From positions 1 through 11,149 of the IMG/VR virus record IMGVR_UViG_2923302340_000010: DNA of 11,149 bases; one strand, 5' to 3'. This document shows positions 1 through 11,149 of the stretch, piece by piece. Origin of the DNA: a virus (lineage: Duplodnaviria > Heunggongvirae > Uroviricota > Caudoviricetes). The first letter of the stretch is position 1. Each line of letters begins with the position of its first letter. The position numbers and the translations under genes were made by a program. The notes beneath the pieces are model-generated. The model was not told where the DNA came from. It searched no databases and was given only the letters and a program-made list of their open reading frames with translations.

Positions 1-285
1 TCACACTCCAACGCGAAGACAACGAACTTTCCTGAATGCCTTACCATTGGGCTGATGTAATCCCATTCCGGCATGTGCCCGGCTGATGGTTTCGCGCATC
101 TCCCCGAAATTATCCTGCTTTGCTGGTGGGCGTGCTGCCTTGTGGATACATTCCGCGCGACGTTTTGCCGCCTGTTCCCGTGCCTTGTCATCATTCGCCA
201 GCATGATGACCTCAGCCCACCGCGCCGCCGCTCTCCGGTACAGACCACGCGCTTCCAGTGCTTCCGCTTTGCTGTCGTGAATCAT
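1..285 (-). CDS. PerC-family transcriptional regulator-like small protein (94 aa)
   Basis: Complete ORF: ATG at 285..283, TGA at 3..1. The motif EARGLYRRAAARW matches my recollection of prophage PerC/Pch-type regulators. The ATG overlaps the stop of the upstream ProQ-like gene (ATGA), suggesting translational coupling. Confidence 0.5.
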   Translation of the reverse strand: MIHDSKAEALEARGLYRRAAARWAEVIMLANDDKAREQAAKRRAECIHKAARPPAKQDNFGEMRETISRAHAGMGLHQPNGKAFRKVRCLRVGV

Positions 286-812
286 GCGCCTGTTTTCTCC
301 TTTGCTGCCCGGCGCTGACGTTTGCGCTTCTCATTCAGCGCCATCAGCCGCGTTTCTGCGTCCTGTTGTTCCTGTGGTGTCACCTCGCCGCACGGCTGGC
401 CTTTCAGGTCGTAACGCGCCCCACCAGCAACCAGGGCGCGGTAATAGCGCGGAGACTGCGCATAAGATGCCAGCGTCGCACGTAATGCCCCTGGCCCAAA
501 TGCCAGCCCCCTGACGGCGAGATCCTGCATCAGGTCGTCGAATATCCCCACCTTAAGCGGCTTCGGTGCTTCCCGGCTGAATAAGTCAGGCCACAACTCA
601 GTGAGGCGGTTAACGCGCCTGCGGTTTTTGCGCTGGCGTTTGGTCATATGCCGCCACGGTGTCGCCCCTGTGGGCTTCTGCTGCGCGTTCTGATTACCGG
701 GCATCACTTTATATGCCGATGTGGTTTTATCCTGCTGTTGCGTCTCCTGTACCATTTTTGTGGCATACCGTAATTTCTGTTGATGGTCAGCTTTTCCATG
801 TGTACTTTTCAT
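282..812 (-). CDS. ProQ/FinO-domain RNA-binding protein (176 aa)
   Basis: The segment PLKVGIFDDLMQDLAVRG...GALRATLASYAQSPRYYRALVAGGARYDLKGQPCGEV resembles the ProQ N-terminal/FinO domain, with a basic K/R-rich C-terminus. ATG at 812 has no obvious SD; internal Met codons are possible alternative starts. Confidence 0.7.
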   Translation of the reverse strand: MKSTHGKADHQQKLRYATKMVQETQQQDKTTSAYKVMPGNQNAQQKPTGATPWRHMTKRQRKNRRRVNRLTELWPDLFSREAPKPLKVGIFDDLMQDLAVRGLAFGPGALRATLASYAQSPRYYRALVAGGARYDLKGQPCGEVTPQEQQDAETRLMALNEKRKRQRRAAKEKTGA

Positions 813-891
813 CGATATTATCCGTATTATCGTCGTTCCTTTTGATGGCTTATTTCTATAGAAATTTCTTTATTGCTTATTACCCAGATAA

Positions 892-1218
892 TTAACTGAC
901 TATTAGTGCTTTAATACTCAGGTACGCAGAAAGAATAACACCAATAAAAGAAGGGTACAGCAGAATCCCAAACAAAAACTTCATGTACTTATGTTTTCCT
1001 ATCACTTCGTTAATAACAGATATTATACTCAACATACATAATGCAATACTTATAGTTGCAATAAATGCAATAGTAAGCAAGATGAAATATCTTACACCTG
1101 TTTGAGAAGATAAATTTGCAATTATACCTATCATAACGAGACTCTGTATAATCCCGAAAGACAAAGCACCAGAAGACTTTTCCACTATTTCACTAAATTT
1201 CTTCACAAAGTAAATCAT
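892..1218 (-). CDS. Small hydrophobic membrane protein, hypothetical (about 108 aa, predicted multi-pass)
   Basis: Strongly AT-rich ORF. ATG at 1218..1216 is preceded by AAGGTGA at 5-nt spacing (the track start at 1227 is GTG). The protein is dominated by I/L/F/V stretches consistent with about three transmembrane helices. TAA at 892..894. Confidence 0.55.
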   Translation of the reverse strand: MIYFVKKFSEIVEKSSGALSFGIIQSLVMIGIIANLSSQTGVRYFILLTIAFIATISIALCMLSIISVINEVIGKHKYMKFLFGILLYPSFIGVILSAYLSIKALIVS

Positions 1219-1295
1219 ATATATCACCTTTATATAACGCTATGCTAAGGTTTATTTATACGATATCCCCAAATGGTATTCCATCACCGTACGGA

Positions 1296-1514
1296 TCACT
1301 CTGCTGGCCTTTTTTGCCGCCCGGCCGCACCGTTCGCGCACTGATTACGCTGTCTGCGATAACCAGACCAGCCACGTTTCGCCGTTCCGTCATCTGCCTG
1401 GCTGCGCGGAAGGGGAACTGCCATACTCGCCATTGCCATTGGTGTTCCCTTGCTGGTGGTTTTTGAGTGCAGATCAGCCACCTGCTGCCCGTAAGCGGAT
1501 ATTTGTACCGTCAT
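1296..1514 (-). CDS. Hypothetical small protein (72 aa)
   Basis: ATG at 1514, TGA at 1296..1298; the ATG overlaps the stop region of the upstream 66-aa ORF (ATGA at 1511..1514). No recognisable motif; a plus-strand ORF overlaps it. Confidence 0.35.
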   Translation of the reverse strand: MTVQISAYGQQVADLHSKTTSKGTPMAMASMAVPLPRSQADDGTAKRGWSGYRRQRNQCANGAAGRQKRPAE

Positions 1515-2041: not shown

Positions 2042-2386
2042 TTAATTTTTGCCATCGTCATTTGTGACCGATGCACATGAGGGCATCCAGTCTTCTGAAT
2101 CCTCTGTCAGTATCACGTTTGAACGCAAGCCATGCTTCGTTTTCCGTTTCATATACTCCCTGCCGTATTCCGCCATTGCCCCTGGCATATCCTTACCGAA
2201 GCGTGTCAGTGTTACGGGCTTACCGAATCCGTGTGCCCTCATATACGCCAGATAGGCGTGATAGAGATACCTGCGCGGGCTGAACGGAATAATTTCAGCA
2301 TTACCCACTAACAGGCCATCGCACATTACCGACGACATGAGATAGCCGCAGAAGTCCACCAGCGAATCGCCCTCGCGTTTTATCAC
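2042..2386 (-). CDS. C-terminal fragment of the P4 alpha-like primase/helicase (putative origin-binding domain), split from the upstream ORF by an in-frame TAG
   Basis: Same reading frame as 2438..3841. The 17 codons between the TAG at 2438..2440 and the GTG at 2386 are open (read-through gives ...LLTRFSD*DEAKRLLYEQQKSEEALVIKREGDS...). The pattern YLYHAYLAYMRAHGFGKPVTLTRFGKDM resembles the conserved C-terminal region of P4-family primases. Weak RBS before the GTG. Confidence 0.6.
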   Translation of the reverse strand: MIKREGDSLVDFCGYLMSSVMCDGLLVGNAEIIPFSPRRYLYHAYLAYMRAHGFGKPVTLTRFGKDMPGAMAEYGREYMKRKTKHGLRSNVILTEDSEDWMPSCASVTNDDGKN

Positions 2387-2437
2387 CAGGGCTTCTTCTG
2401 ATTTCTGCTGCTCATATAGCAGGCGTTTAGCTTCGTC

Positions 2438-3841
2438 CTAGTCAGAAAAGCGTGTAAGCAGGTGGCGAATCACTACCGCCAGCTCTCCTTCTATTTTTTC
2501 AGCCAGCATAGGGTCACGTTCGTTCTCCGGTACAACTTCCGAAAAATTGAATATTACCCGACGACGTGATATCCCACCGCTGCGGTCACTGAATGACATG
2601 GCGTTATTGTTCACCGCCAGCACGACCGCCTGAATGCGTGTTGAGTAGGGGGCTTTATGTTTCGGGTCGATTGCCACCTTATCACCGCCTGTAATGGCCT
2701 TAATCCCTGCACCATCACCAGCGTAACGGGTCATATCCGGCATGATAATCAGCGAAAAGCCAACCACTAACGCACGTTCCCTGGCATCTTCCAGCGCCTT
2801 CATGCTTGCCGATACCGTGTTGGCCTTACCCGCCAGCATAGTGCAAATCTCCGCCATTACGCTTTTACCGCTTCCACCCGGCCCCGTTACCTCAAGAAAT
2901 AACTGCCAGTCGTACCGATTCGCCAGCACCATGAATAACGCCGCCAGTACGCGATCTGCCTTGCGGTCATTCTCAGCCACCGAACGGCGCAACCACTTCC
3001 AGAAATTCGGCGCATGTGTTGCCAGCGTTTCCCCCTCTGCTGGTGGGCTGAAAGGTAATTCACTGGCAATTAACAACCAGTCGTTTTTGTTATGCTCCCG
3101 AAAATTACCAGTTCTGGTATCAAATACCCCGTTACTGAATCCAATCAGGTTACGGGCTGTATTCCCCATTACGGGCAAACTTAACTTCATGGTATCGACC
3201 GCCGATTTGATGGCGTTCTGCGAATAGCTGATTTCCGCATCAATAAAAATCTGCGCCATAGTCCGCTGTAACTCTTTATCCTGTACCGGCTCCCATACAA
3301 CACCGTTGTAGTGGTGAACGGTGTCAGAATCCGCATTGATTGCCAGTTCACCGCCATAATGTGCCAGGAGAACTTCGCCGCGCTGGCTGGCTCCCATCTG
3401 ATTTAGTGCTGGCCTGGGTAGGTCAATATTTTTTGTGGCTAATTTCATCGCTGAAACTTCCCCACTCTCTGCCTGTTCGCGGATCCGTTGCAGGTAGTCG
3501 CGCCAGTTTTCCGGCTCCCGGTCGGTGATACCTTTGTATAATTTCGCGTCCTGTACGCCAGCCAGTGCCAGTTTTTCAGCGATAGCATTGATCTGGATTG
3601 GTTCGATCTCCCCCGCGAGATAGACACGCGCAAAGCGGCGTTCATCGTCGACAATGCGGATATTCGCCAGGTCTGCCAGTTGCTTTGGCCCCAGGTAAAC
3701 AGGTGGTACGTTATCGCCGTGTTTTCGTCCTTCGCTTTCAATCCAGTGTTGAGCATGGGCGTAAGCATCCGTCCCGGCAAAAATGATTACCTCAGTGAAT
3801 TTATCCTTCGGCTGATATTTCAAACTCGGTGCGTTTTTCAC
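2438..3841 (-). CDS. P4 alpha-like primase/helicase (D5/P4-family P-loop NTPase), truncated by an in-frame TAG at 2438..2440
   Basis: 467-aa ORF with Walker A motif GPGGSGKS. GTG start at 3841 is preceded by GGGAGGT and overlaps the stop of the upstream gene (GTGA). Together with 2042..2386 it would make a roughly 600-aa protein. Confidence 0.85.
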   Translation of the reverse strand: MKNAPSLKYQPKDKFTEVIIFAGTDAYAHAQHWIESEGRKHGDNVPPVYLGPKQLADLANIRIVDDERRFARVYLAGEIEPIQINAIAEKLALAGVQDAKLYKGITDREPENWRDYLQRIREQAESGEVSAMKLATKNIDLPRPALNQMGASQRGEVLLAHYGGELAINADSDTVHHYNGVVWEPVQDKELQRTMAQIFIDAEISYSQNAIKSAVDTMKLSLPVMGNTARNLIGFSNGVFDTRTGNFREHNKNDWLLIASELPFSPPAEGETLATHAPNFWKWLRRSVAENDRKADRVLAALFMVLANRYDWQLFLEVTGPGGSGKSVMAEICTMLAGKANTVSASMKALEDARERALVVGFSLIIMPDMTRYAGDGAGIKAITGGDKVAIDPKHKAPYSTRIQAVVLAVNNNAMSFSDRSGGISRRRVIFNFSEVVPENERDPMLAEKIEGELAVVIRHLLTRFSD

Positions 3842-4128
3842 TTCTTACCTCCCGCAACCAACATTGCCCGGATTTTTTTAATATTCGTGGCTGCACGTCT
3901 TGCCACTGCCTGTTGTTTGTTTTCAACCAGAATAAAATCACGCTCAAACTGACGGCGCGGCATTACGCAGTCATATTCGTAAGCCTCACGGCGGTAGGTG
4001 ATATTGCCTGGCGTAACGTGACGAATAACCACTCGTCCCCCACGTCTGGTGTCGCGGTAAATATCGCCGTGTCTGATTTCAGGCCGAGCGGGGCCGCTGG
4101 CAGTAAAGCCAGAATTTTTCTTTTTCAT
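3838..4128 (-). CDS. Hypothetical basic protein (96 aa), coupled to the primase start
   Basis: ATG at 4128, TGA at 3838..3840 overlapping the primase GTG. Arg/Lys-rich; no motif recognised. Confidence 0.55.
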   Translation of the reverse strand: MKKKNSGFTASGPARPEIRHGDIYRDTRRGGRVVIRHVTPGNITYRREAYEYDCVMPRRQFERDFILVENKQQAVARRAATNIKKIRAMLVAGGKK

Positions 4129-4691: not shown

Positions 4692-4908
4692 GGTGCACCT
4701 CCTGCACATCAGCCATGATAATTTTTCCGGCCTTATCCAGTGCCTGATCGGCTTTTAGCTGCACAAATGCTAAATAATGGGAGATGCATTCTGATTCTCT
4801 GGCTGCGTGTTTATGCGCCACACCAGCGATAGCAGAAATCTCAATAAGTGAATCCATCAGCGTTTTGATAGCGTCTACCGCTGCATCAGGCCATGTTGCA
4901 TTACACAT
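4684..4908 (-). CDS. Hypothetical protein (74 aa)
   Basis: ATG at 4908 preceded by CAGGAGGTGG; overlaps the stop of the upstream gene (ATGTGTAA). Confidence 0.5.
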   Translation of the reverse strand: MCNATWPDAAVDAIKTLMDSLIEISAIAGVAHKHAARESECISHYLAFVQLKADQALDKAGKIIMADVQEVHHA

Positions 4909-5266
4909 GTTCCACCTCCTGGCGAATGCGGGCAGCGAATACCATCACGCAGCCATCAGGAGATTGCTGGCGTGCTTCCTGTTCGCTGGTGGCCTCGATG
5001 TGAATTACACGCGGTTGTGCTGTGCTCAGGGCGATAAAACGCCATATAAAATTGTTTTCGCATTTCTGAATAAACAGCGTGTTTTCTTCGCGCCCTTTCC
5101 ATGTTGCCGAGATATAGCCCATATCATTGAGCATCTTGCAGGCATCCACCAGCGTATCAGCGGCTACGTGTACAGTGTTTTTACCGTCAGCCATGCAATC
5201 ACGGTGCACCGCCAGGAAGGTGTATATAAATTTAGGGTGAGTTTGGGTATGCTGTATTCCAGCCAT
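4901..5266 (-). CDS. Hypothetical protein (121 aa), first gene of the operon leading into the primase
   Basis: Internal ATG at 5266..5264 of the 384-aa track ORF, preceded by GAGGT at about 8 nt. Upstream of it the frame yields low-complexity Ser/Cys-rich sequence and overlaps the plus-strand regulator gene, so the long ORF is an artefact. Confidence 0.55.
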   Translation of the reverse strand: MAGIQHTQTHPKFIYTFLAVHRDCMADGKNTVHVAADTLVDACKMLNDMGYISATWKGREENTLFIQKCENNFIWRFIALSTAQPRVIHIEATSEQEARQQSPDGCVMVFAARIRQEVEHV

Positions 5267-5353
5267 AATCGTTACCTCATTTAACGGTTTGGTTAGAAGC
5301 CCGGTTAGTGTTCGCGCACTGCCGGGTTTCGTCGTTTTTATGAATCGCTCATT

Positions 5354-5455
5354 GTGAGATACATAGCGACCTCCATGTGAGATACACATTATATTGTGGT
5401 GATATACATTGCAAGTGTTTTTATATCTCACTTTTGTGTATAGTGATATACACAT
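5354..5455. promoter_or_regulatory. Phased operator-like repeat array GTGA(G/T)ATACA(CA)T in the divergent intergenic region
   Basis: Direct copies at 5354..5364, 5377..5389, 5399..5409 and 5443..5455, plus an inverted copy ATATCTCAC at 5423..5431, spaced about 22-23 bp apart (two helical turns). A possible extended -10 (TGTGTATAGT, about 5435..5444) faces the plus-strand gene. Confidence 0.5.
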
Positions 5456-5474
5456 AACAAATTGGTGATTAACT

Positions 5475-5777
5475 ATGTCTGTATACAAAAATGCAAAATC
5501 GCAAATGACAACGATCAGGGTTCCCCACGATGTTATGGAGGGCATGGAATCCGTAAAACTGGACGGCGAAAGCAACGCCGGATTCATAGTAACCGCCATG
5601 CGCGGTGAGATCGCTCGCCGCCAGGCAGAAGGAAGAGGAGAAAATCCCCTGGTTTCTTCGCTCGATGCACTGGCGCAGGTGGAAAAAATCGGTGTCAAAG
5701 CTGCCGAGGAGATCGGGCAACTCGTCACCGTCGCGCGTGAAGAACTCCAGCGCCGCAAGGCCAAAGAACAGGAGTAG
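5475..5777 (+). CDS. Small DNA-binding regulator, putative ribbon-helix-helix (CopG/Arc-like) repressor (100 aa)
   Basis: ATG at 5475 with GGTGA 6 nt upstream; TAG at 5775..5777. TTIRVPHDV (beta-strand), then a helix, a NAG turn and a second helix (FIVTAMRGEIARR) fit the RHH pattern; charged helical C-terminus. It is the only convincing plus-strand gene in the element and is divergent from the small-gene operon. Confidence 0.5.
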   Translation: MSVYKNAKSQMTTIRVPHDVMEGMESVKLDGESNAGFIVTAMRGEIARRQAEGRGENPLVSSLDALAQVEKIGVKAAEEIGQLVTVAREELQRRKAKEQE

Positions 5778-6047
5778 TTGATCAGCACCGGGCGACCAGA
5801 AAAAATCGCATCAGTCGCACCACCAGCAAAATTTTTTGCTTTCCGGACAGCGTGACCAACGACATTTTGCAGCAAAATATTCTGCATTTCTGGCGTGCTG
5901 TAGTAACGGTGATCAGCGCCTTCACTCTGTGCGACCACAACGCTATAATCTGCCTCGTAGACAGTAAGCAATATGGCGCAGTAGGCTATTCGTTCACAAA
6001 GGCGCTCCGGCAACGGGGCGCTTTCTCTTTTTGTAACGGTCAGAGCG

Positions 6048-6896
6048 TTACACATGGCTGTTTTCCTCCATGCGGCGGGCTAACCAACGCTGCGAAAGAC
6101 GAATTAATTCAGCTTTCCGCTGGTGGTAGTCCTGGCCTAACTCAATCAGCGTGATATTGCTCTGCTCAAGGTAAGAAAGGTGCTCAAGCTGCAACGTGCT
6201 CATGTGGTCGCGTGGTTCGCCTGTGATGCCGTTCGCCAGTGCCCACTGTTTTGCAGTCATGCCACCCAGCACGATACGCGCCAGCATATTGGCTTCCGTG
6301 GTGTAGTGGTGCTGGAACGTGCTTTTACCCAGTTCAGCCCGGTACGCCTCCAGCGCGGCGCACATCGGCTTAAAGTAGCTGGCAACGGTGATACGGGCTT
6401 TCAGTTCCCGGCGTAACGCTGCGGAACGCACTGGCGCCACCTTGTGTAGATCCTCCTCGCATTTGATGAAATACTGGCGAACGGCGCGGCCTTGTTCGGT
6501 GCGTTCGACCATCGCCAGTTCTTTCGCCATGTTCGTGGAGATCAAATAGTCTTCACTGCGGCGATCACCGCCGCGCTTTGTTGTCCAATCAGAATCAAAC
6601 TGTTCAATATTTACACTTTGGTTCCCCCGTTTCGGGGAATCAAAGTACAAATTTTCTACAACTTCAAAATCCACGCCATTTTTAAATCCGTACTCATCAA
6701 TACGTCCTTTAATCCAGGTAGTGAAATCACGGCCTACCCCGAGCGCCTTATACAACGCTCTGGCGCTAACAATATTGGTTTCACGCCCGCCAATAACGCC
6801 GGAAATAACCGGGATAATTTCGCCAAAATTTTGCAGATTCTGGTTTTCAGGCCGAACGAAGCCCTGCCCCTGTACGGGCGTTTTTGGAAATTTCAT
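6048..6896 (-). CDS. Phage antirepressor-like protein with N-terminal AntA/Bro-N-type domain (282 aa)
   Basis: ATG at 6896 preceded by AGGAG; TAA at 6048..6050. ALYKALGVGRDFTTWIKGRIDEYGF and NMAKELAMVERTEQGRAVRQYFIKCEE match the conserved blocks of phage Ant/Bro-N antirepressor N-domains as I recall them. Confidence 0.7.
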   Translation of the reverse strand: MKFPKTPVQGQGFVRPENQNLQNFGEIIPVISGVIGGRETNIVSARALYKALGVGRDFTTWIKGRIDEYGFKNGVDFEVVENLYFDSPKRGNQSVNIEQFDSDWTTKRGGDRRSEDYLISTNMAKELAMVERTEQGRAVRQYFIKCEEDLHKVAPVRSAALRRELKARITVASYFKPMCAALEAYRAELGKSTFQHHYTTEANMLARIVLGGMTAKQWALANGITGEPRDHMSTLQLEHLSYLEQSNITLIELGQDYHQRKAELIRLSQRWLARRMEENSHV

Positions 6897-6973: not shown

Positions 6974-7171
6974 TCAGGTAGCTGTTCCGCGTGATTCTGC
7001 AATACGCTGATTAATCCACTCGTCAATTTCACTCTCAACGAAAGCAATCGCTCGCGAGCCAATTTTAACTGATGCAGGAAATTTACCTTGCCCCATAAGG
7101 CGATAAATCCATGCCTTGCTATATCCAGTTCTACGCTGAACTTCTGTTAAACGAATAAGCGTATTTGACAT
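6974..7171 (-). CDS. alpA: AlpA-family phage regulatory protein (MerR-like HTH; excisionase/transcriptional activator type, 65 aa)
   Basis: LTEVQRRTGYSKAWIYRLMGQGKFP...ESEIDEWINQR matches the AlpA/Vis family pattern (HTH followed by EIDEW). ATG at 7171 preceded by GAGGT; TGA at 6974..6976. Confidence 0.85.
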   Translation of the reverse strand: MSNTLIRLTEVQRRTGYSKAWIYRLMGQGKFPASVKIGSRAIAFVESEIDEWINQRIAESRGTAT

Positions 7172-7398: not shown

Positions 7399-8196
7399 TT
7401 AATCCGGCTTTGCGTTCTTTTGGCTGTTGTCTCGGTTAATAGGGCAGGCAGTCCTCTCTATGAGCGTTGCAAGAGCATTACTTGCCCCCCACTGCTTAAG
7501 CTCCCTGGTTATCGCTTCTTGATTTCCCCTGGTGGCAAAATCATTTTCTGGATCGTAATTGGCCCACTCTCTGTTTCTAATCTCAATAGCCTTAGCTAAT
7601 GGGTCTTTATCCCAGTATTTATATAAGTGTATCGGGCGCTCTTGCTCTAACTGCTCTATCCTTGCCCTTAACTCTGCGTTTTCTTTTTCCAGCATTGCGA
7701 TTTGGGATAATAAATCATCCTCTGTACGCAACTCTTTCTTTTCAATATCGCGTCCTTGTGCCTCGTCATTTTCAGAAGAGTTAGCGCCTTCCAGCTTCGT
7801 TAACGCGTCAAGGACATCGGGAAAAATTGCGAAAATTTCACCCCTTATAAATCCAATGTTCTCAAATTCGGGATCTTCCCAATAACCGGACACCAGAAAA
7901 CCATTTTCATCCCTCTCACCAGGTAAACAACCACGTTTCCGAACCGCATTCAGATTTCTATAAAGAACATCATAATCAAATTCATCCCGATACGGGTTAC
8001 AAAAAGATTCCAACAGCTTAAATTCATTTACTGTGTACAGGCGGATATGTTCTCCGTTTATTCTCCTGAGTATCCAAGTTATGACATCTGAAACATCATA
8101 ATCATCACCAGCGACCTTAAGCACGACCTCAAGAAATTCACGTAAAGAAATAAAATCTTTTTTGTATTCGTTTAATTCGGCATGAATATCAATCAT
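7399..8196 (-). CDS. Hypothetical acidic protein (about 265 aa) with central coiled-coil; AT-rich orphan gene between int and alpA
   Basis: ATG at 8196 preceded by GAGGTG (the track start at 8202 is GTG); TAA at 7399..7401. Markedly lower GC than its neighbours. Coiled-coil-like segment LLSQIAMLEKENAELRARIEQLEQE. No catalytic motif recognised. Confidence 0.7.
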   Translation of the reverse strand: MIDIHAELNEYKKDFISLREFLEVVLKVAGDDYDVSDVITWILRRINGEHIRLYTVNEFKLLESFCNPYRDEFDYDVLYRNLNAVRKRGCLPGERDENGFLVSGYWEDPEFENIGFIRGEIFAIFPDVLDALTKLEGANSSENDEAQGRDIEKKELRTEDDLLSQIAMLEKENAELRARIEQLEQERPIHLYKYWDKDPLAKAIEIRNREWANYDPENDFATRGNQEAITRELKQWGASNALATLIERTACPINRDNSQKNAKPD

Positions 8197-8324
8197 ACGC
8201 ACACCTCAGCGTCCTCTACTGTAGTGGCTGTACCAGTCCGTCGAGGTGTACGGATTTTCGGGAGCGACCCTAGACACAGCCTTTTCTTTCGTCGCTCAAA
8301 GTCTACTACTGTATACTCAACCAG

Positions 8325-9539
8325 TCACCCGCATTTTCCGAACTCACCATGCACCACATTTCCGCCATGCTCGAGCGAATCCATATAGTCGGCATACCAC
8401 TGGAGCATCTCCCGGCGACCATCCAGATATTGCGCATGGTTGTATGTGCCACGAATTGAGTTTTTATCGACGTGTGCAAGCTGTGTCTCTATCCACGCGG
8501 TGTTATAGCCCTGCTCATGCAAAATGGTGCTCATGGTGTGCCGGAATCCATGACCAGTAACCTTTCCGTTATAGCCGATGCGTTTAAATACTTGGTTTAT
8601 GCTAGCCTCGCTCATTGTTTTCCTTGGATCATTACGGCCGGGAAACATAAGCGGATAATTGCCAGTTAATTCTTTAATCTGCCCAATAAGCGAAAGAGCC
8701 TGCTTAGACAAAGGCACCACATGAGGGCGACGCATTTTCATCCGTGAAGCAGGTATCTCCCAGATAGCCTTGTTGAGATCGATTTCATCCCATAATGCAC
8801 CGCGCAGTTCGCCAGTCCGCAAACCGGTGATAATCAGTAGACGAGCCGCCATAACAACCAATGCACTTCCTGAGTAACTGGACAATGCCTTGAAAAAATC
8901 AGGTAATTCTTTGGCTGTGAGGAAAGGATAATGATTAGATTCATGACCTTGCATCGCGCTGGTGAGATCCGGTGCAGGGTTATACTCAGCACGTCCAGTG
9001 ACAATTGCATAGCGGAAAACCTCCCCGCATCGCTGCCTCACTTTTTTGGCTTTTTCGGTAGCACCGCGCCCCTCGATGCGCCGCAGCACATTCAGCAGTT
9101 CAAGTGGTTTGATTTCGGCGATTGGTTTTTTGCCAATGTAAGGGAACACATCTTTGTTGAAGGCTTCGAGGATGTCTGAAGCATAACCAGCAGACCATTT
9201 TTTTAATTTGCTGCTGTGCCACTCAAGGGCAATATCTTTGAAGGTGTTGTTTAACTGCGTTTCCCGGGCAATCTTTTCCTCTCGTTTCGCTTCCATCGGA
9301 TCGATACCCCCAGCGATACCCCTTTTAGCTTCTTCACGTTTTGCACGAGCATCAGCCAAGGTAACTTCAGGATACACACCTAGTGCTAACAGCTTCTCTT
9401 TACCAGCTACACGATACTTGAAGCGCCAATATTTTCCTCCACTAGGTTTTACCAAGAGATACAGACCGCCACCATCAGCCAGCTTGTAAGCCTTCTCTTT
9501 TGGCTTGGCAGTGTCTATTTGACGGGCATTGAGTTTCAC
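8325..9539 (-). CDS. int: P4-type tyrosine site-specific integrase (404 aa)
   Basis: N-terminal arm-binding-type region (LNARQIDTAKPKEK...GGLYLLVKPSGGKYWRFKYR), catalytic R in GLRTGELRG, H-x-x-R in HGFRHT, and a C-terminal Tyr in RGTYNH. GTG start at 9539 preceded by GGAGGT. Lies directly beside the tRNA 3' end. Confidence 0.95.
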   Translation of the reverse strand: MKLNARQIDTAKPKEKAYKLADGGGLYLLVKPSGGKYWRFKYRVAGKEKLLALGVYPEVTLADARAKREEAKRGIAGGIDPMEAKREEKIARETQLNNTFKDIALEWHSSKLKKWSAGYASDILEAFNKDVFPYIGKKPIAEIKPLELLNVLRRIEGRGATEKAKKVRQRCGEVFRYAIVTGRAEYNPAPDLTSAMQGHESNHYPFLTAKELPDFFKALSSYSGSALVVMAARLLIITGLRTGELRGALWDEIDLNKAIWEIPASRMKMRRPHVVPLSKQALSLIGQIKELTGNYPLMFPGRNDPRKTMSEASINQVFKRIGYNGKVTGHGFRHTMSTILHEQGYNTAWIETQLAHVDKNSIRGTYNHAQYLDGRREMLQWYADYMDSLEHGGNVVHGEFGKCG

Positions 9540-9705: not shown

Positions 9706-9781
9706 TGGTGCCGATAATAGGAGTCGAACCTACGACCTTCGCATTACGAATGCGCTGCTCTACCAACTGAGCTATATCGGC
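9706..9781 (-). tRNA. thrW: tRNA-Thr (anticodon CGU)
   Basis: The reverse complement reads GCCGATATAGCTCAGTTGGTAGAGCAGCGCATTCGTAATGCGAAGGTCGTAGGTTCGACTCCTATTATCGGCACCA: 76 nt, cloverleaf-compatible, anticodon loop TTCGTAA, encoded CCA. Position downstream of proA matches the E. coli proA-thrW arrangement. Confidence 0.95.
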
Positions 9782-9895: not shown

Positions 9896-11149
9896 TTACG
9901 CACGAATGGTGTAATCACCAATGCCGATCCACTTGTAAGTGGTCAGCGCTTCCAGCCCCATTGGGCCACGCGCGTGGAGTTTTTGTGTGCTTACCGCCAC
10001 TTCCGCGCCCAGTCCAAACTGGCCGCCGTCGGTAAAACGCGTAGAGGCGTTAACGTAAACAGAGGACGAATCCACTTCGTTAACAAAACGCTGGGCGTTG
10101 CGCATATCGCGGGTCAGGATCGCATCGGAGTGTTGTGTGCCGTGTTCACGAATATGGGCGATGGCATCGTCAAGATCGCTGACGATTTTAACGTTCAAAT
10201 CTAATGACAGAAACTCATCGTCATACTCTTCGGCTTTAACAGCCACCACCTTCGCGGGGCCTGCCTGCAACTGCGCCAGCGCAGCTACATCTGCGTGTAA
10301 TGTCACGCTGCTTTCCGCCATTTGCTTGCTTAATGCGGGCAGGAAGCTATCGGCGATGTTTTTATTTACCAGCAACGTTTCTACCGTATTACATGTGCTC
10401 GGACGCTGAGTTTTTGCGTTAACGATTACTTTCATGGCTTCAGCGATCTCTGCACTTTCATCAACGTAAATATGGCATACGCCTATACCGCCTGTGATCA
10501 CCGGGATTGTCGACTGTTCGCGGCACAGCTTATGCAGGCCAGCGCCACCACGCGGGATCAGCATGTCGATGTATTTATCCATACGCAGCATTTCACTTAC
10601 CAGCGCACGGTCAGGATTATCAATCGCCTGCACGGCACCCGCCGGTAAGCTGCAGGATTTCAGGGCGTCCTGAATCACCGCCACCGTTGCAGCGTTAGTG
10701 CGACAGGTTTCTTTGCCACCACGCAGGATCACTGCGTTACCGGTTTTCAGGCACAGGGAAGCAACATCAACCGTCACGTTCGGGCGCGCTTCATAAATCA
10801 CGCCAATCACCCCCAGCGGTACGCGACGACGCTCCAGACGCAGACCGCTGTCCAGTACGCCACCATCAATCACCTGCCCCACCGGATCGGCGAGGTTACA
10901 CACCTGACGCACATCATCGGCAATGCCTTTCAGCCGTGCGGGCGTCAGAGCCAGACGGTCAAGCATCGCTTCGCTAAGGCCATTGGCACGCGCGTCAGCA
11001 ACATCCTGCGCGTTAGCGTTGAGGATGATTTTGCTTTGTGCTTCCAGTTCATCGGCGATTTTTTCCAGCACGCGATTTTTTTCGCGGCTGGAGAGTTGCG
11101 CTAATTTATACGAGGCTTGCTTCGCGGCAATGCCCATTTGTTCCAGCAT
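9896..11149 (-). CDS. proA: Gamma-glutamyl phosphate reductase (glutamate-5-semialdehyde dehydrogenase)
   Basis: Full 417-aa ORF: ATG at the window end ([19 protein letters not shown]...), TAA at 9896..9898; aldehyde-dehydrogenase-like throughout; lies beside the tRNA-Thr gene as in enterobacterial chromosomes. Confidence 0.97.

Follow-up and report, generated by a model that had tools for sequence, protein, structure and literature searches.

A gene for a FinO-domain protein (FinO below) and a gene for a PerC-family protein lie side by side at one end of the window, as we call the whole 11,149-nt stretch of DNA analysed here, and they raise the question of what kind of element carries them and whose expression they serve. 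The original prediction described a co-transcribed pair that could reprogramme host gene expression, on the ground that PerC homologues of prophages activate host virulence loci. We found that FinO-PerC is a cassette often present, and already annotated, in phage-satellite islands of E. coli, and our result mainly confirms the existing annotation of the pair. With modest confidence, we lean towards the reading that FinO-PerC is a regulatory cassette ending the primase-ssb operon of an AlpA-type satellite and consists of two regulators working in parallel. The features on which the following analysis is based are listed in Table 1.

Table 1. Features located in the window, with their positions, strand and the basis of the assignment.
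Feature	Position	Strand	Basis or remark
PerC-family gene	1..285	(-)	94 aa, Pfam PF06069
ATGA stop/start overlap, FinO/PerC	282..285	(-)	plus-strand TCAT read directly
FinO-domain (ProQ/FinO family) gene	282..812	(-)	176-aa ORF, Pfam PF04352
GGAG Shine-Dalgarno-like motif in FinO 3' end	297..300	(-)	11 nt upstream of PerC ATG
Remodelled FinO 5' end	702..812	(-)	DNA alignment with four relatives
AT-rich insert	892..1227	(-)	GC about 0.31; 111-aa hydrophobic ORF
ssb remnant	1259..1514	(-)	tblastn mapping of frameshifted IMT5155 ORF
P4-type primase/helicase	2042..3841	(-)	Pfam D5_N, DUF5906, Pox_D5
DUF4222 gene, RgdR-family homologue	3838..4128	(-)	Pfam PF13973; overlaps primase start
Icd-like gene	4904-5122		with divergent YlcI/YnfO gene, then several small ORFs
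AntA antirepressor gene			after AlpA in island order
AlpA-family regulator	6974..7171	(-)	Pfam PF05930 E 2.4e-19
267-aa ORF			between int-alpA RNA and AlpA gene
int-alpA RNA match	8213-8280		Rfam
Tyrosine integrase	8325..9539	(-)	Pfam Phage_integrase, Arm-DNA-bind_3, Phage_int_M
tRNA-Thr (CGT), integration site	9706..9781	(-)	ARAGORN, Rfam tRNA
proA, adjoining tRNA-Thr	9896-11149		PGAP annotation of relatives

The FinO-domain call of the original prediction was borne out by a Pfam profile search, in which the 176-aa ORF matched PF04352 (ProQ/FinO) with 87.1 bits and E 9.7e-25 at a curated cut-off of 27 bits. The domain occupies residues 64-168 and spans profile positions 5-108 of 109, and a basic stretch, TKRQRKNRRR, is found at residues 57-66. 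The best PDB match was ProQ (5nb9, E 2.5e-12); the ORF also matched FinO (1dvo, E 3.9e-11) and the solved FinO domains of NMB1681 and RocC. In ProQ, residues R58, Y70 and R80 are essential for the binding of terminator-hairpin RNA, and G37 is universal (PMC10168233). They align to R111, Y123, R133 and G89 of the window protein in the PDB alignment. The ProQ residues of moderate effect, K54 and R62, are not kept and are replaced by P107 and A115. At the level of sequence, the FinO-domain protein keeps the residues that ProQ needs to bind terminator hairpins, and because the domain is intact, binding of terminator-type RNA hairpins is its predicted and expected activity. ProQ shares only the FinO domain with the window protein, which has neither the linker nor the Tudor-like C-terminal domain of ProQ. 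The window protein also stayed below the NCBIfam cut-offs of both the FinO model NF010317 (65.7 bits, cut-off 136) and the ProQ equivalog NF003434 (60.3 bits, cut-off 127), and so belongs to a separate subfamily borne by satellites and islands.

Closer in setting are FinO of F-like plasmids and FopA of pCol1B9: like the window protein, they are FinO-domain proteins encoded on mobile elements, and their N-terminal extension is basic. Each of the two protects an antisense RNA made by its own element and helps this RNA to pair with the mRNA for an activator of transfer or replication (PMC9977716). The window gene differs in being located on a phage satellite rather than a plasmid and in being coupled to a PerC gene, and no antisense RNA partner was found with Rfam. 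The Rfam search for an RNA partner returned no RNA family common to FinO-bearing islands: the int-alpA RNA match of the window was absent from the other FinO-bearing islands, and C4 and isrK RNAs were found in EcCIMP1, an island without FinO.

The PerC call, which the original prediction had held to be unsure, proved correct as well. The 94-aa ORF matched PF06069 with 105.6 bits and E 1.6e-30 in the Pfam profile search (curated cut-off 22.6 bits), residues 1-87 spanning profile positions 1-87 of 90, and it matched the PHROG family phrog_994 with E 2e-33; NCBIfam had no model matching it. All invariant residues (D4, E8, E11, G14, Y16, R18, A19, R22, W23 and C46) are present. The conserved N-terminal three-helix domain comprises residues 1-52, and the AlphaFold2 model has pLDDT >90 at residues 1-50. 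According to this model, the conserved part of PerC would be a short three-helix TPR-like bundle with no helix-turn-helix, and such a fold would fit the published anti-H-NS mechanism. A TPR-like match is generic for a helical bundle of 50 residues such as PerC. The PDB contained no PerC relative.

The C-terminal tail of the window PerC is anomalous. Its last eight residues are unlike every homologue compared, since window bases 1-27 match no relative; these foreign bases replace the PerC tail and the terminator found 3' of PerC in relatives. The 27 bases were found neither in complete E. coli genomes nor in IMG/VR. They do occur in five metagenome contigs whose remaining sequence is unrelated to the window, and in one inspected contig they lie ~1.2 kb from a DndG/DptG gene. 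A 54-aa protein, called "Transcriptional regulator PchE" by NCBI name only, is 89% identical to residues 1-54 of the window PerC but ends after the helical domain. Upstream of its gene, and overlapping it by 4 nt, lies a gene for a FinO protein of 176 aa; the island has the order DUF4222, helicase, SSB, FinO.

The ATGA overlap between the two genes, which the original prediction had reported, is present: the FinO stop codon TGA shares bases with the PerC start codon ATG, and no terminator-like site was found between FinO and PerC on the coding strand. Given this overlap, the two genes are plausibly co-transcribed and translationally coupled, and it is in this weaker form that the predicted co-transcription is retained. 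The GGAG motif within the 3' end of FinO could serve as a Shine-Dalgarno sequence for PerC, with a spacing that exceeds the optimum. In ~44 of the 63 FinO-PerC loci read by eye, a GC-rich hairpin followed by a T-run starts a few bases after the PerC stop codon, and the hairpin directly 3' of PerC in ABU 83972 folds with z = -5.1. The presence of an intrinsic terminator directly 3' of PerC in most relatives suggests that the FinO-PerC pair closes the replication operon. From gene order alone, the pair would belong to this operon and would be controlled by AlpA.

What, then, is the carrier? Save for the divergent YlcI/YnfO gene, every island gene is on the minus strand and points away from tRNA-Thr. 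Integrase, AlpA and primase are present in the order that defines the Gram-negative PICI layout, and the island order ends with primase, ssb remnant, FinO and PerC. AlpA is the master activator in Gram-negative PICIs (PMC11773190). The scanned island ORFs gave no match to phage structural proteins in Pfam. The left end of the island at tRNA-Thr is present; the other end lies beyond window position 1, in rearranged sequence. Judged by its gene content, the carrier is an AlpA/primase-type phage satellite, a PICI-like island, at the tRNA-Thr gene adjoining proA. The term prophage in the original prediction was imprecise in this respect, and both FinO and PerC are nearly absent from sequenced phages. 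Two other assignments were considered and rejected. A P4-like satellite was discarded because the scanned ORFs had no psu, delta or sid matches (Pfam, PHROG) and no C4/CI RNA was detected with Rfam. Identity with EcCIMP1 was discarded because the gene content beyond the primase differs.

Islands related to the window have been characterised. Helper-phage-induced excision, replication and packaging have been shown for the relatives EcCICFT073 and EcCIMP1. EcCIEDL933 and EcCICFT073 (CP-933C, O-island 51) belong to the same island family as the window and share with it the order integrase, AlpA, Icd, DUF4222 (RgdR), helicase, SSB and PerC. In these islands, in contrast to the window, PerC directly follows SSB without FinO and is succeeded by capsid and decoration genes. 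The PerC of the EcCIEDL933 type is 45% identical to the window PerC, and the DUF4222 protein of the window shares 52% identity with its 99-aa counterpart in the O157 island; RgdR has been described (PMC3378721). Earlier papers mention PerC in PICIs (PMC6092414, PMC11773190), and PerC and ProQ/FinO were listed as PICI accessory genes in Enterobacter (PMC13612085). We found no discussion of FinO-PerC coupling or of a role of FinO in satellites in the literature searched.

The pair is widely distributed. RefSeq annotates the neighbours "ProQ/FINO family protein" and "PerC family transcriptional regulator" in 331 of 5,426 complete E. coli genomes, and at the DNA level the FinO clade or a PerC gene was found in 1,911 genomes, about a third of complete E. 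coli. Searching IMG/VR with the FinO alignment yielded 80 loci; a scan of genome contigs with the single FinO protein gave one locus, from Escherichia ruysiae. PerC stands directly downstream of FinO in 53 of the 80 loci, or in 32 of 42 when counted by distinct FinO sequence. The ATGA overlap also occurs in Salmonella salamae (FinO 81% identical) and Citrobacter portucalensis (57%), and at 45% FinO identity PerC is still present, 19 nt downstream. Among 50 distinct FinO-PerC pairs, median dN/dS was 0.24 for FinO and 0.28 for PerC, and both genes are under purifying selection. The median dS of PerC was 0.66 as opposed to 0.21 for FinO within the same pairs. The far greater divergence of PerC suggests that it has been swapped by recombination while the junction was retained.

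This conserved junction could be taken as a sign that FinO and PerC form an obligate two-protein complex in which PerC is the adaptor of an RNA chaperone. Such a complex would account for the conserved translational coupling: the ATGA overlap is kept in 51 of the 53 IMG/VR FinO-PerC loci, including those with an exchanged PerC allele, and the predicted fold of PerC is of a protein-binding type. Furthermore, in the IMG/VR loci without PerC, FinO overlaps another small downstream gene, save in one group of four. Against this, PerC occurs without FinO in O157 island CP-933C (EcCIEDL933 type), in EcCIMP1 and in lambdoid prophages. FinO, in turn, is found with unrelated partners, namely an 82-aa protein in capsid-forming PICIs, where it is encoded just before the capsid gene, and a 138-aa protein. 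It also stands alone: FinO genes of the same clade occur in YfjJ/AlpA-type genomic islands, convergent to their neighbours. Because each gene often occurs without the other, an obligate complex is highly improbable. Whether the 82-aa and 138-aa partners are hidden relatives of PerC was checked with hhalign and rejected, the probability being <1% for both.

Gene order in intact relatives bears on the role of FinO. The order DUF4222, primase/helicase (of the D5, DUF927 or AAA_25 type), sometimes a small ORF, SSB, FinO and a small gene overlapping FinO is kept in E. coli, Salmonella, Citrobacter and one capsid-forming PICI. The position of FinO after primase and SSB holds across satellites with different replication and packaging modules, and this fixed place argues for a function in the life cycle of the satellite itself, as opposed to host-directed cargo. 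The lone copies in YfjJ/AlpA-type islands indicate that the FinO clade is not bound to satellite replication. EcCICFT073, EcCIEDL933 and EcCIMP1, all characterised PICIs, function without FinO, an observation that counts against the cassette model.

The 5' end of FinO in the window differs from that of its relatives. Relative to the four aligned relatives, it carries a 12-nt and a 1-nt deletion, and the 176-aa ORF depends on a new ATG at 810-812. The ancestral ATG lies at 797-799; its frame now runs for 31 codons and ends with TGA 704-706, which overlaps an in-frame ATG at 702-704 (TGATG). Twenty aligned relatives have the N-terminus MT.LTINRK or start later, and their start MT(K)LTINRK matches the ATG at window position 799. 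The new ATG at 812 has a weak ribosome-binding site. The start of FinO in the window is uncertain.

Could the pair in the window be a non-functional remnant of a decaying island? The primase is interrupted by an in-frame amber codon (TAG) at 2438-2440, where the 604-aa primase of ABU 83972 has CAG for Gln, and ssb is truncated: the PGAP feature "SSB, incomplete" of ABU 83972 (13356-13487) equals window 1383-1514, and the AT-rich insert occupies the expected place of the 3' part of ssb. The 5' end of FinO is frameshifted and the ancestral ribosome-binding site is gone; PGAP calls a nearly identical FinO allele (99% protein identity, no indels) in ABU 83972 and IMT5155 a frameshifted pseudogene. 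The foreign sequence in place of the PerC tail and terminator points in the same direction. On the other hand, neither ORF is interrupted and each encodes a complete domain, and translation from the in-frame ATGs at M37 or M56 would still give the whole FinO domain. Moreover, the same FinO allele recurs with hardly any change in no fewer than 10 complete genomes, in 5 contigs of IMG/VR and in a protein cluster of 109 members. We consider it rather improbable that the pair is a mere remnant. The island of the window is eroded, and its FinO-PerC copy may be only partly functional; with FinO of uncertain start and both primase and ssb broken, the cassette of the window may be inactive.

The AT-rich insert could also bear on expression. 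It contains a promoter-like site at 1150-1121 with a 10/12 match, and this putative promoter could drive transcription of FinO-PerC. The hydrophobic ORF of the insert had no Pfam, PHROG or PADLOC match.

The remaining question is whether the pair is accessory cargo that reprogrammes host expression (virulence, adhesion or motility) in the lysogenic state. PerC of the EPEC plasmid pEAF and PchA/B/C of EHEC prophages (group 1) belong to the same Pfam family as the window PerC and are, like it, small and encoded on horizontally acquired DNA. Pch relieves silencing by H-NS/StpA/Hha at LEE1 (PMC4764244). It is the group-1 proteins PchABC that activate LEE; PchE, from group 3, is a repressor of curli and adhesion and increases flagellar expression. 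The nearest PerC relative with experimental data is EcCIMP1_025 of the PICI EcCIMP1 from E. coli MP1, which is 49% identical to the window PerC. EcCIMP1 is an AlpA-type PICI at the same thrW/proA site as the window island, but EcCIMP1_025 has no FinO upstream and is located at the far island end, after genes of the phage DNA-ejection type. When expressed, EcCIMP1_025 silences LEE1, as observed by repression of LEE1-lux in Citrobacter rodentium, and LEE1 was reported to be unaffected by the PerC-like genes of EcCIEDL933 and EcCICFT073. The closest assayed relative of the window PerC, unlike group-1 PerC/PchABC, does not activate LEE1. The role of virulence activator, which the original prediction had suggested from PerC homologues, is not supported by these nearest assayed relatives, which repress LEE1 or leave it unaffected. 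Its wider proposal that the pair reprogrammes the host is weakly supported: EcCIMP1_025 does affect LEE1, but as a repressor.

Placement and evolution of PerC would also suit host cargo. The gene is moron-like: lambdoid prophages have it between their lysis genes and Nu1, and PICIs at their ends; its alleles are shuffled relative to FinO, as the dS values indicate; and in the window the AT-rich insert offers a possible constitutive promoter. Yet the published effects of the PerC family were obtained by over-expression from plasmids, and the PerC-like genes of EcCIEDL933 and EcCICFT073 add the reported lack of a LEE1 effect. Commensal strains and strains that lack LEE, ABU 83972 among them, commonly carry the pair; FinO is fixed in the replication module, and no link connects the FinO protein with host sRNAs. 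We regard host reprogramming as the unlikely, though not negligible, function of the pair.

Under the cassette reading, which we prefer, both proteins would be made together when the replication operon is read, mainly after helper-phage induction via AlpA; in the window, transcription may start at the putative promoter within the AT-rich insert instead. The FinO protein would bind a hairpin-plus-U-tail RNA of the satellite, the helper phage or the host and would alter the stability or pairing of that RNA, as FinO and FopA do on plasmids. PerC would act on silencing complexes of the H-NS type by contacting proteins, as has been shown for Pch, and could thereby open or close AT-rich promoters of horizontally acquired DNA. 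FinO and PerC would act in parallel, one on RNA and the other on silencing, without an obligate complex. Effects on host adhesion, motility or LEE genes would be a by-product or a secondary benefit of PerC.

If the cassette is active, satellites would carry their own post-transcriptional and anti-silencing regulators. FinO-PerC could then set the timing of satellite replication and could shift the expression of host adhesion, motility and virulence genes, which would be relevant to how satellite islands shape pathogenic and commensal E. coli. Caution is advisable with labels such as "virulence regulator" for PerC and RgdR, which fall on conserved satellite genes of many non-pathogens.

A bolder version of this proposal would make the satellite FinO a hallmark RNA-level regulator of enterobacterial phage satellites, one that governs either satellite replication or the switch to packaging via a terminator-type RNA and is translationally coupled to PerC as an H-NS anti-silencer. 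We hold this version to be speculative and distinctly unlikely. It would echo the FinOP/TraJ/H-NS logic of F plasmids.

The AT-rich insert stands in place of the 3' portion of ssb as well as the FinO gene's ancestral ribosome-binding site, and a sigma-70-like promoter with a 10/12 match is predicted within it at 1150-1121. Neither the segment nor its 111-aa ORF gave any match in our searches of Pfam, PHROGs, and PADLOC. Inside the FinO gene, the stop codon of a 31-codon ORF in the ancestral frame, which starts at the ATG at 799 used by relatives, overlaps with an in-frame ATG (M37) of the 176-aa FinO ORF. Judging from the sequence, this TGATG arrangement may permit termination-reinitiation, which would generate a 140-aa FinO product, or the overlap may have arisen by chance.

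The window edge also carries foreign DNA. Bases 1-27 had no match in relatives, complete E. coli genomes, or IMG/VR contigs, and we found the exact 27-mer in five metagenome contigs. These contigs are otherwise dissimilar to the window. The 27-mer suggests that other island DNA has taken the place of the island's far side. In L112, the one contig inspected of the five, a DndG/DptG phosphorothioation-defence gene is located roughly 1.2 kb away from the 27-mer.

An in-frame TAG divides the P4-type primase/helicase gene into ORFs of 467 aa and 114 aa. Because of this interruption, the island is probably replication-defective, barring suppression of the stop codon.

Next to the integrase gene, and immediately downstream of it, Rfam identified an int-alpA RNA. 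The same RNA was not detected in eight further related loci scanned with Rfam, five of which combine FinO with either an integrase gene or an AlpA-type one. The 267-aa ORF had no match in Pfam, PHROG, or PADLOC, and the gene at the equivalent position in E. coli IMT5155 has no homology to it. The integrase-AlpA interval looks like an accessory slot of variable content.

In the O157 island CP-933C, the 99-aa DUF4222 protein is taken to be RgdR (ECs1581), judged from its size and position. RgdR is a published regulator of LEE and motility, and in a commensal variant the alteration of the arginine of the RGD motif abolished the activation of T3S (PMC3378721). The DUF4222 protein in the window has HGD at the site of this motif. 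The 384-aa ORF is probably spurious, with the Icd-like and YlcI/YnfO ORFs being the real genes of that region.

Features of the window and FinO genes of the same clade in other islands
Feature	Position	Strand	Remarks
TGATG overlap	702-706	-	31-codon ORF stop and M37
AT-rich insert	about 813-1258	-	GC about 0.31
111-aa ORF	892-1227	-	hydrophobic, multi-pass; within insert
In-frame TAG	2438-2440	-	CAG (Gln) in ABU 83972
DUF4222 gene	3838-4128	-	52% identity to CP-933C protein
384-aa ORF	4901-6055	-	ORF listing
Icd-like ORF	4904-5122	-	100% identity to IMT5155 protein
SymR-like match, weak	5261-5333	+	Rfam 35.7 bits, under gathering score 61; between Icd-like and YlcI/YnfO ORFs
YlcI/YnfO ORF	5475-5777	+	divergent from Icd-like ORF
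267-aa ORF	7399-8202	-	between integrase and AlpA
int-alpA RNA (RF02996)	8213-8280	-	45.5 bits vs gathering score 35.8
FinO gene, shorter or stand-alone	L005 (E. coli O157:H7 86-24) 7973-8317; also L017-L020		YfjJ/AlpA-type genomic islands

The FinO gene of the YfjJ/AlpA-type islands is convergent to its neighbouring genes and is frequently labelled 'frameshifted'; in strain 86-24, it adjoins a dndBCDE/dptH cluster. The PerC homologue in lambdoid prophages (L026-L029) shares 64% identity with PerC of the window and occupies the moron slot beside cos, flanked by the Rz lysis gene and Nu1. FinO-PerC satellites of the L021 type have an opposite-strand Nu1-like gene about 0.8 kb downstream.
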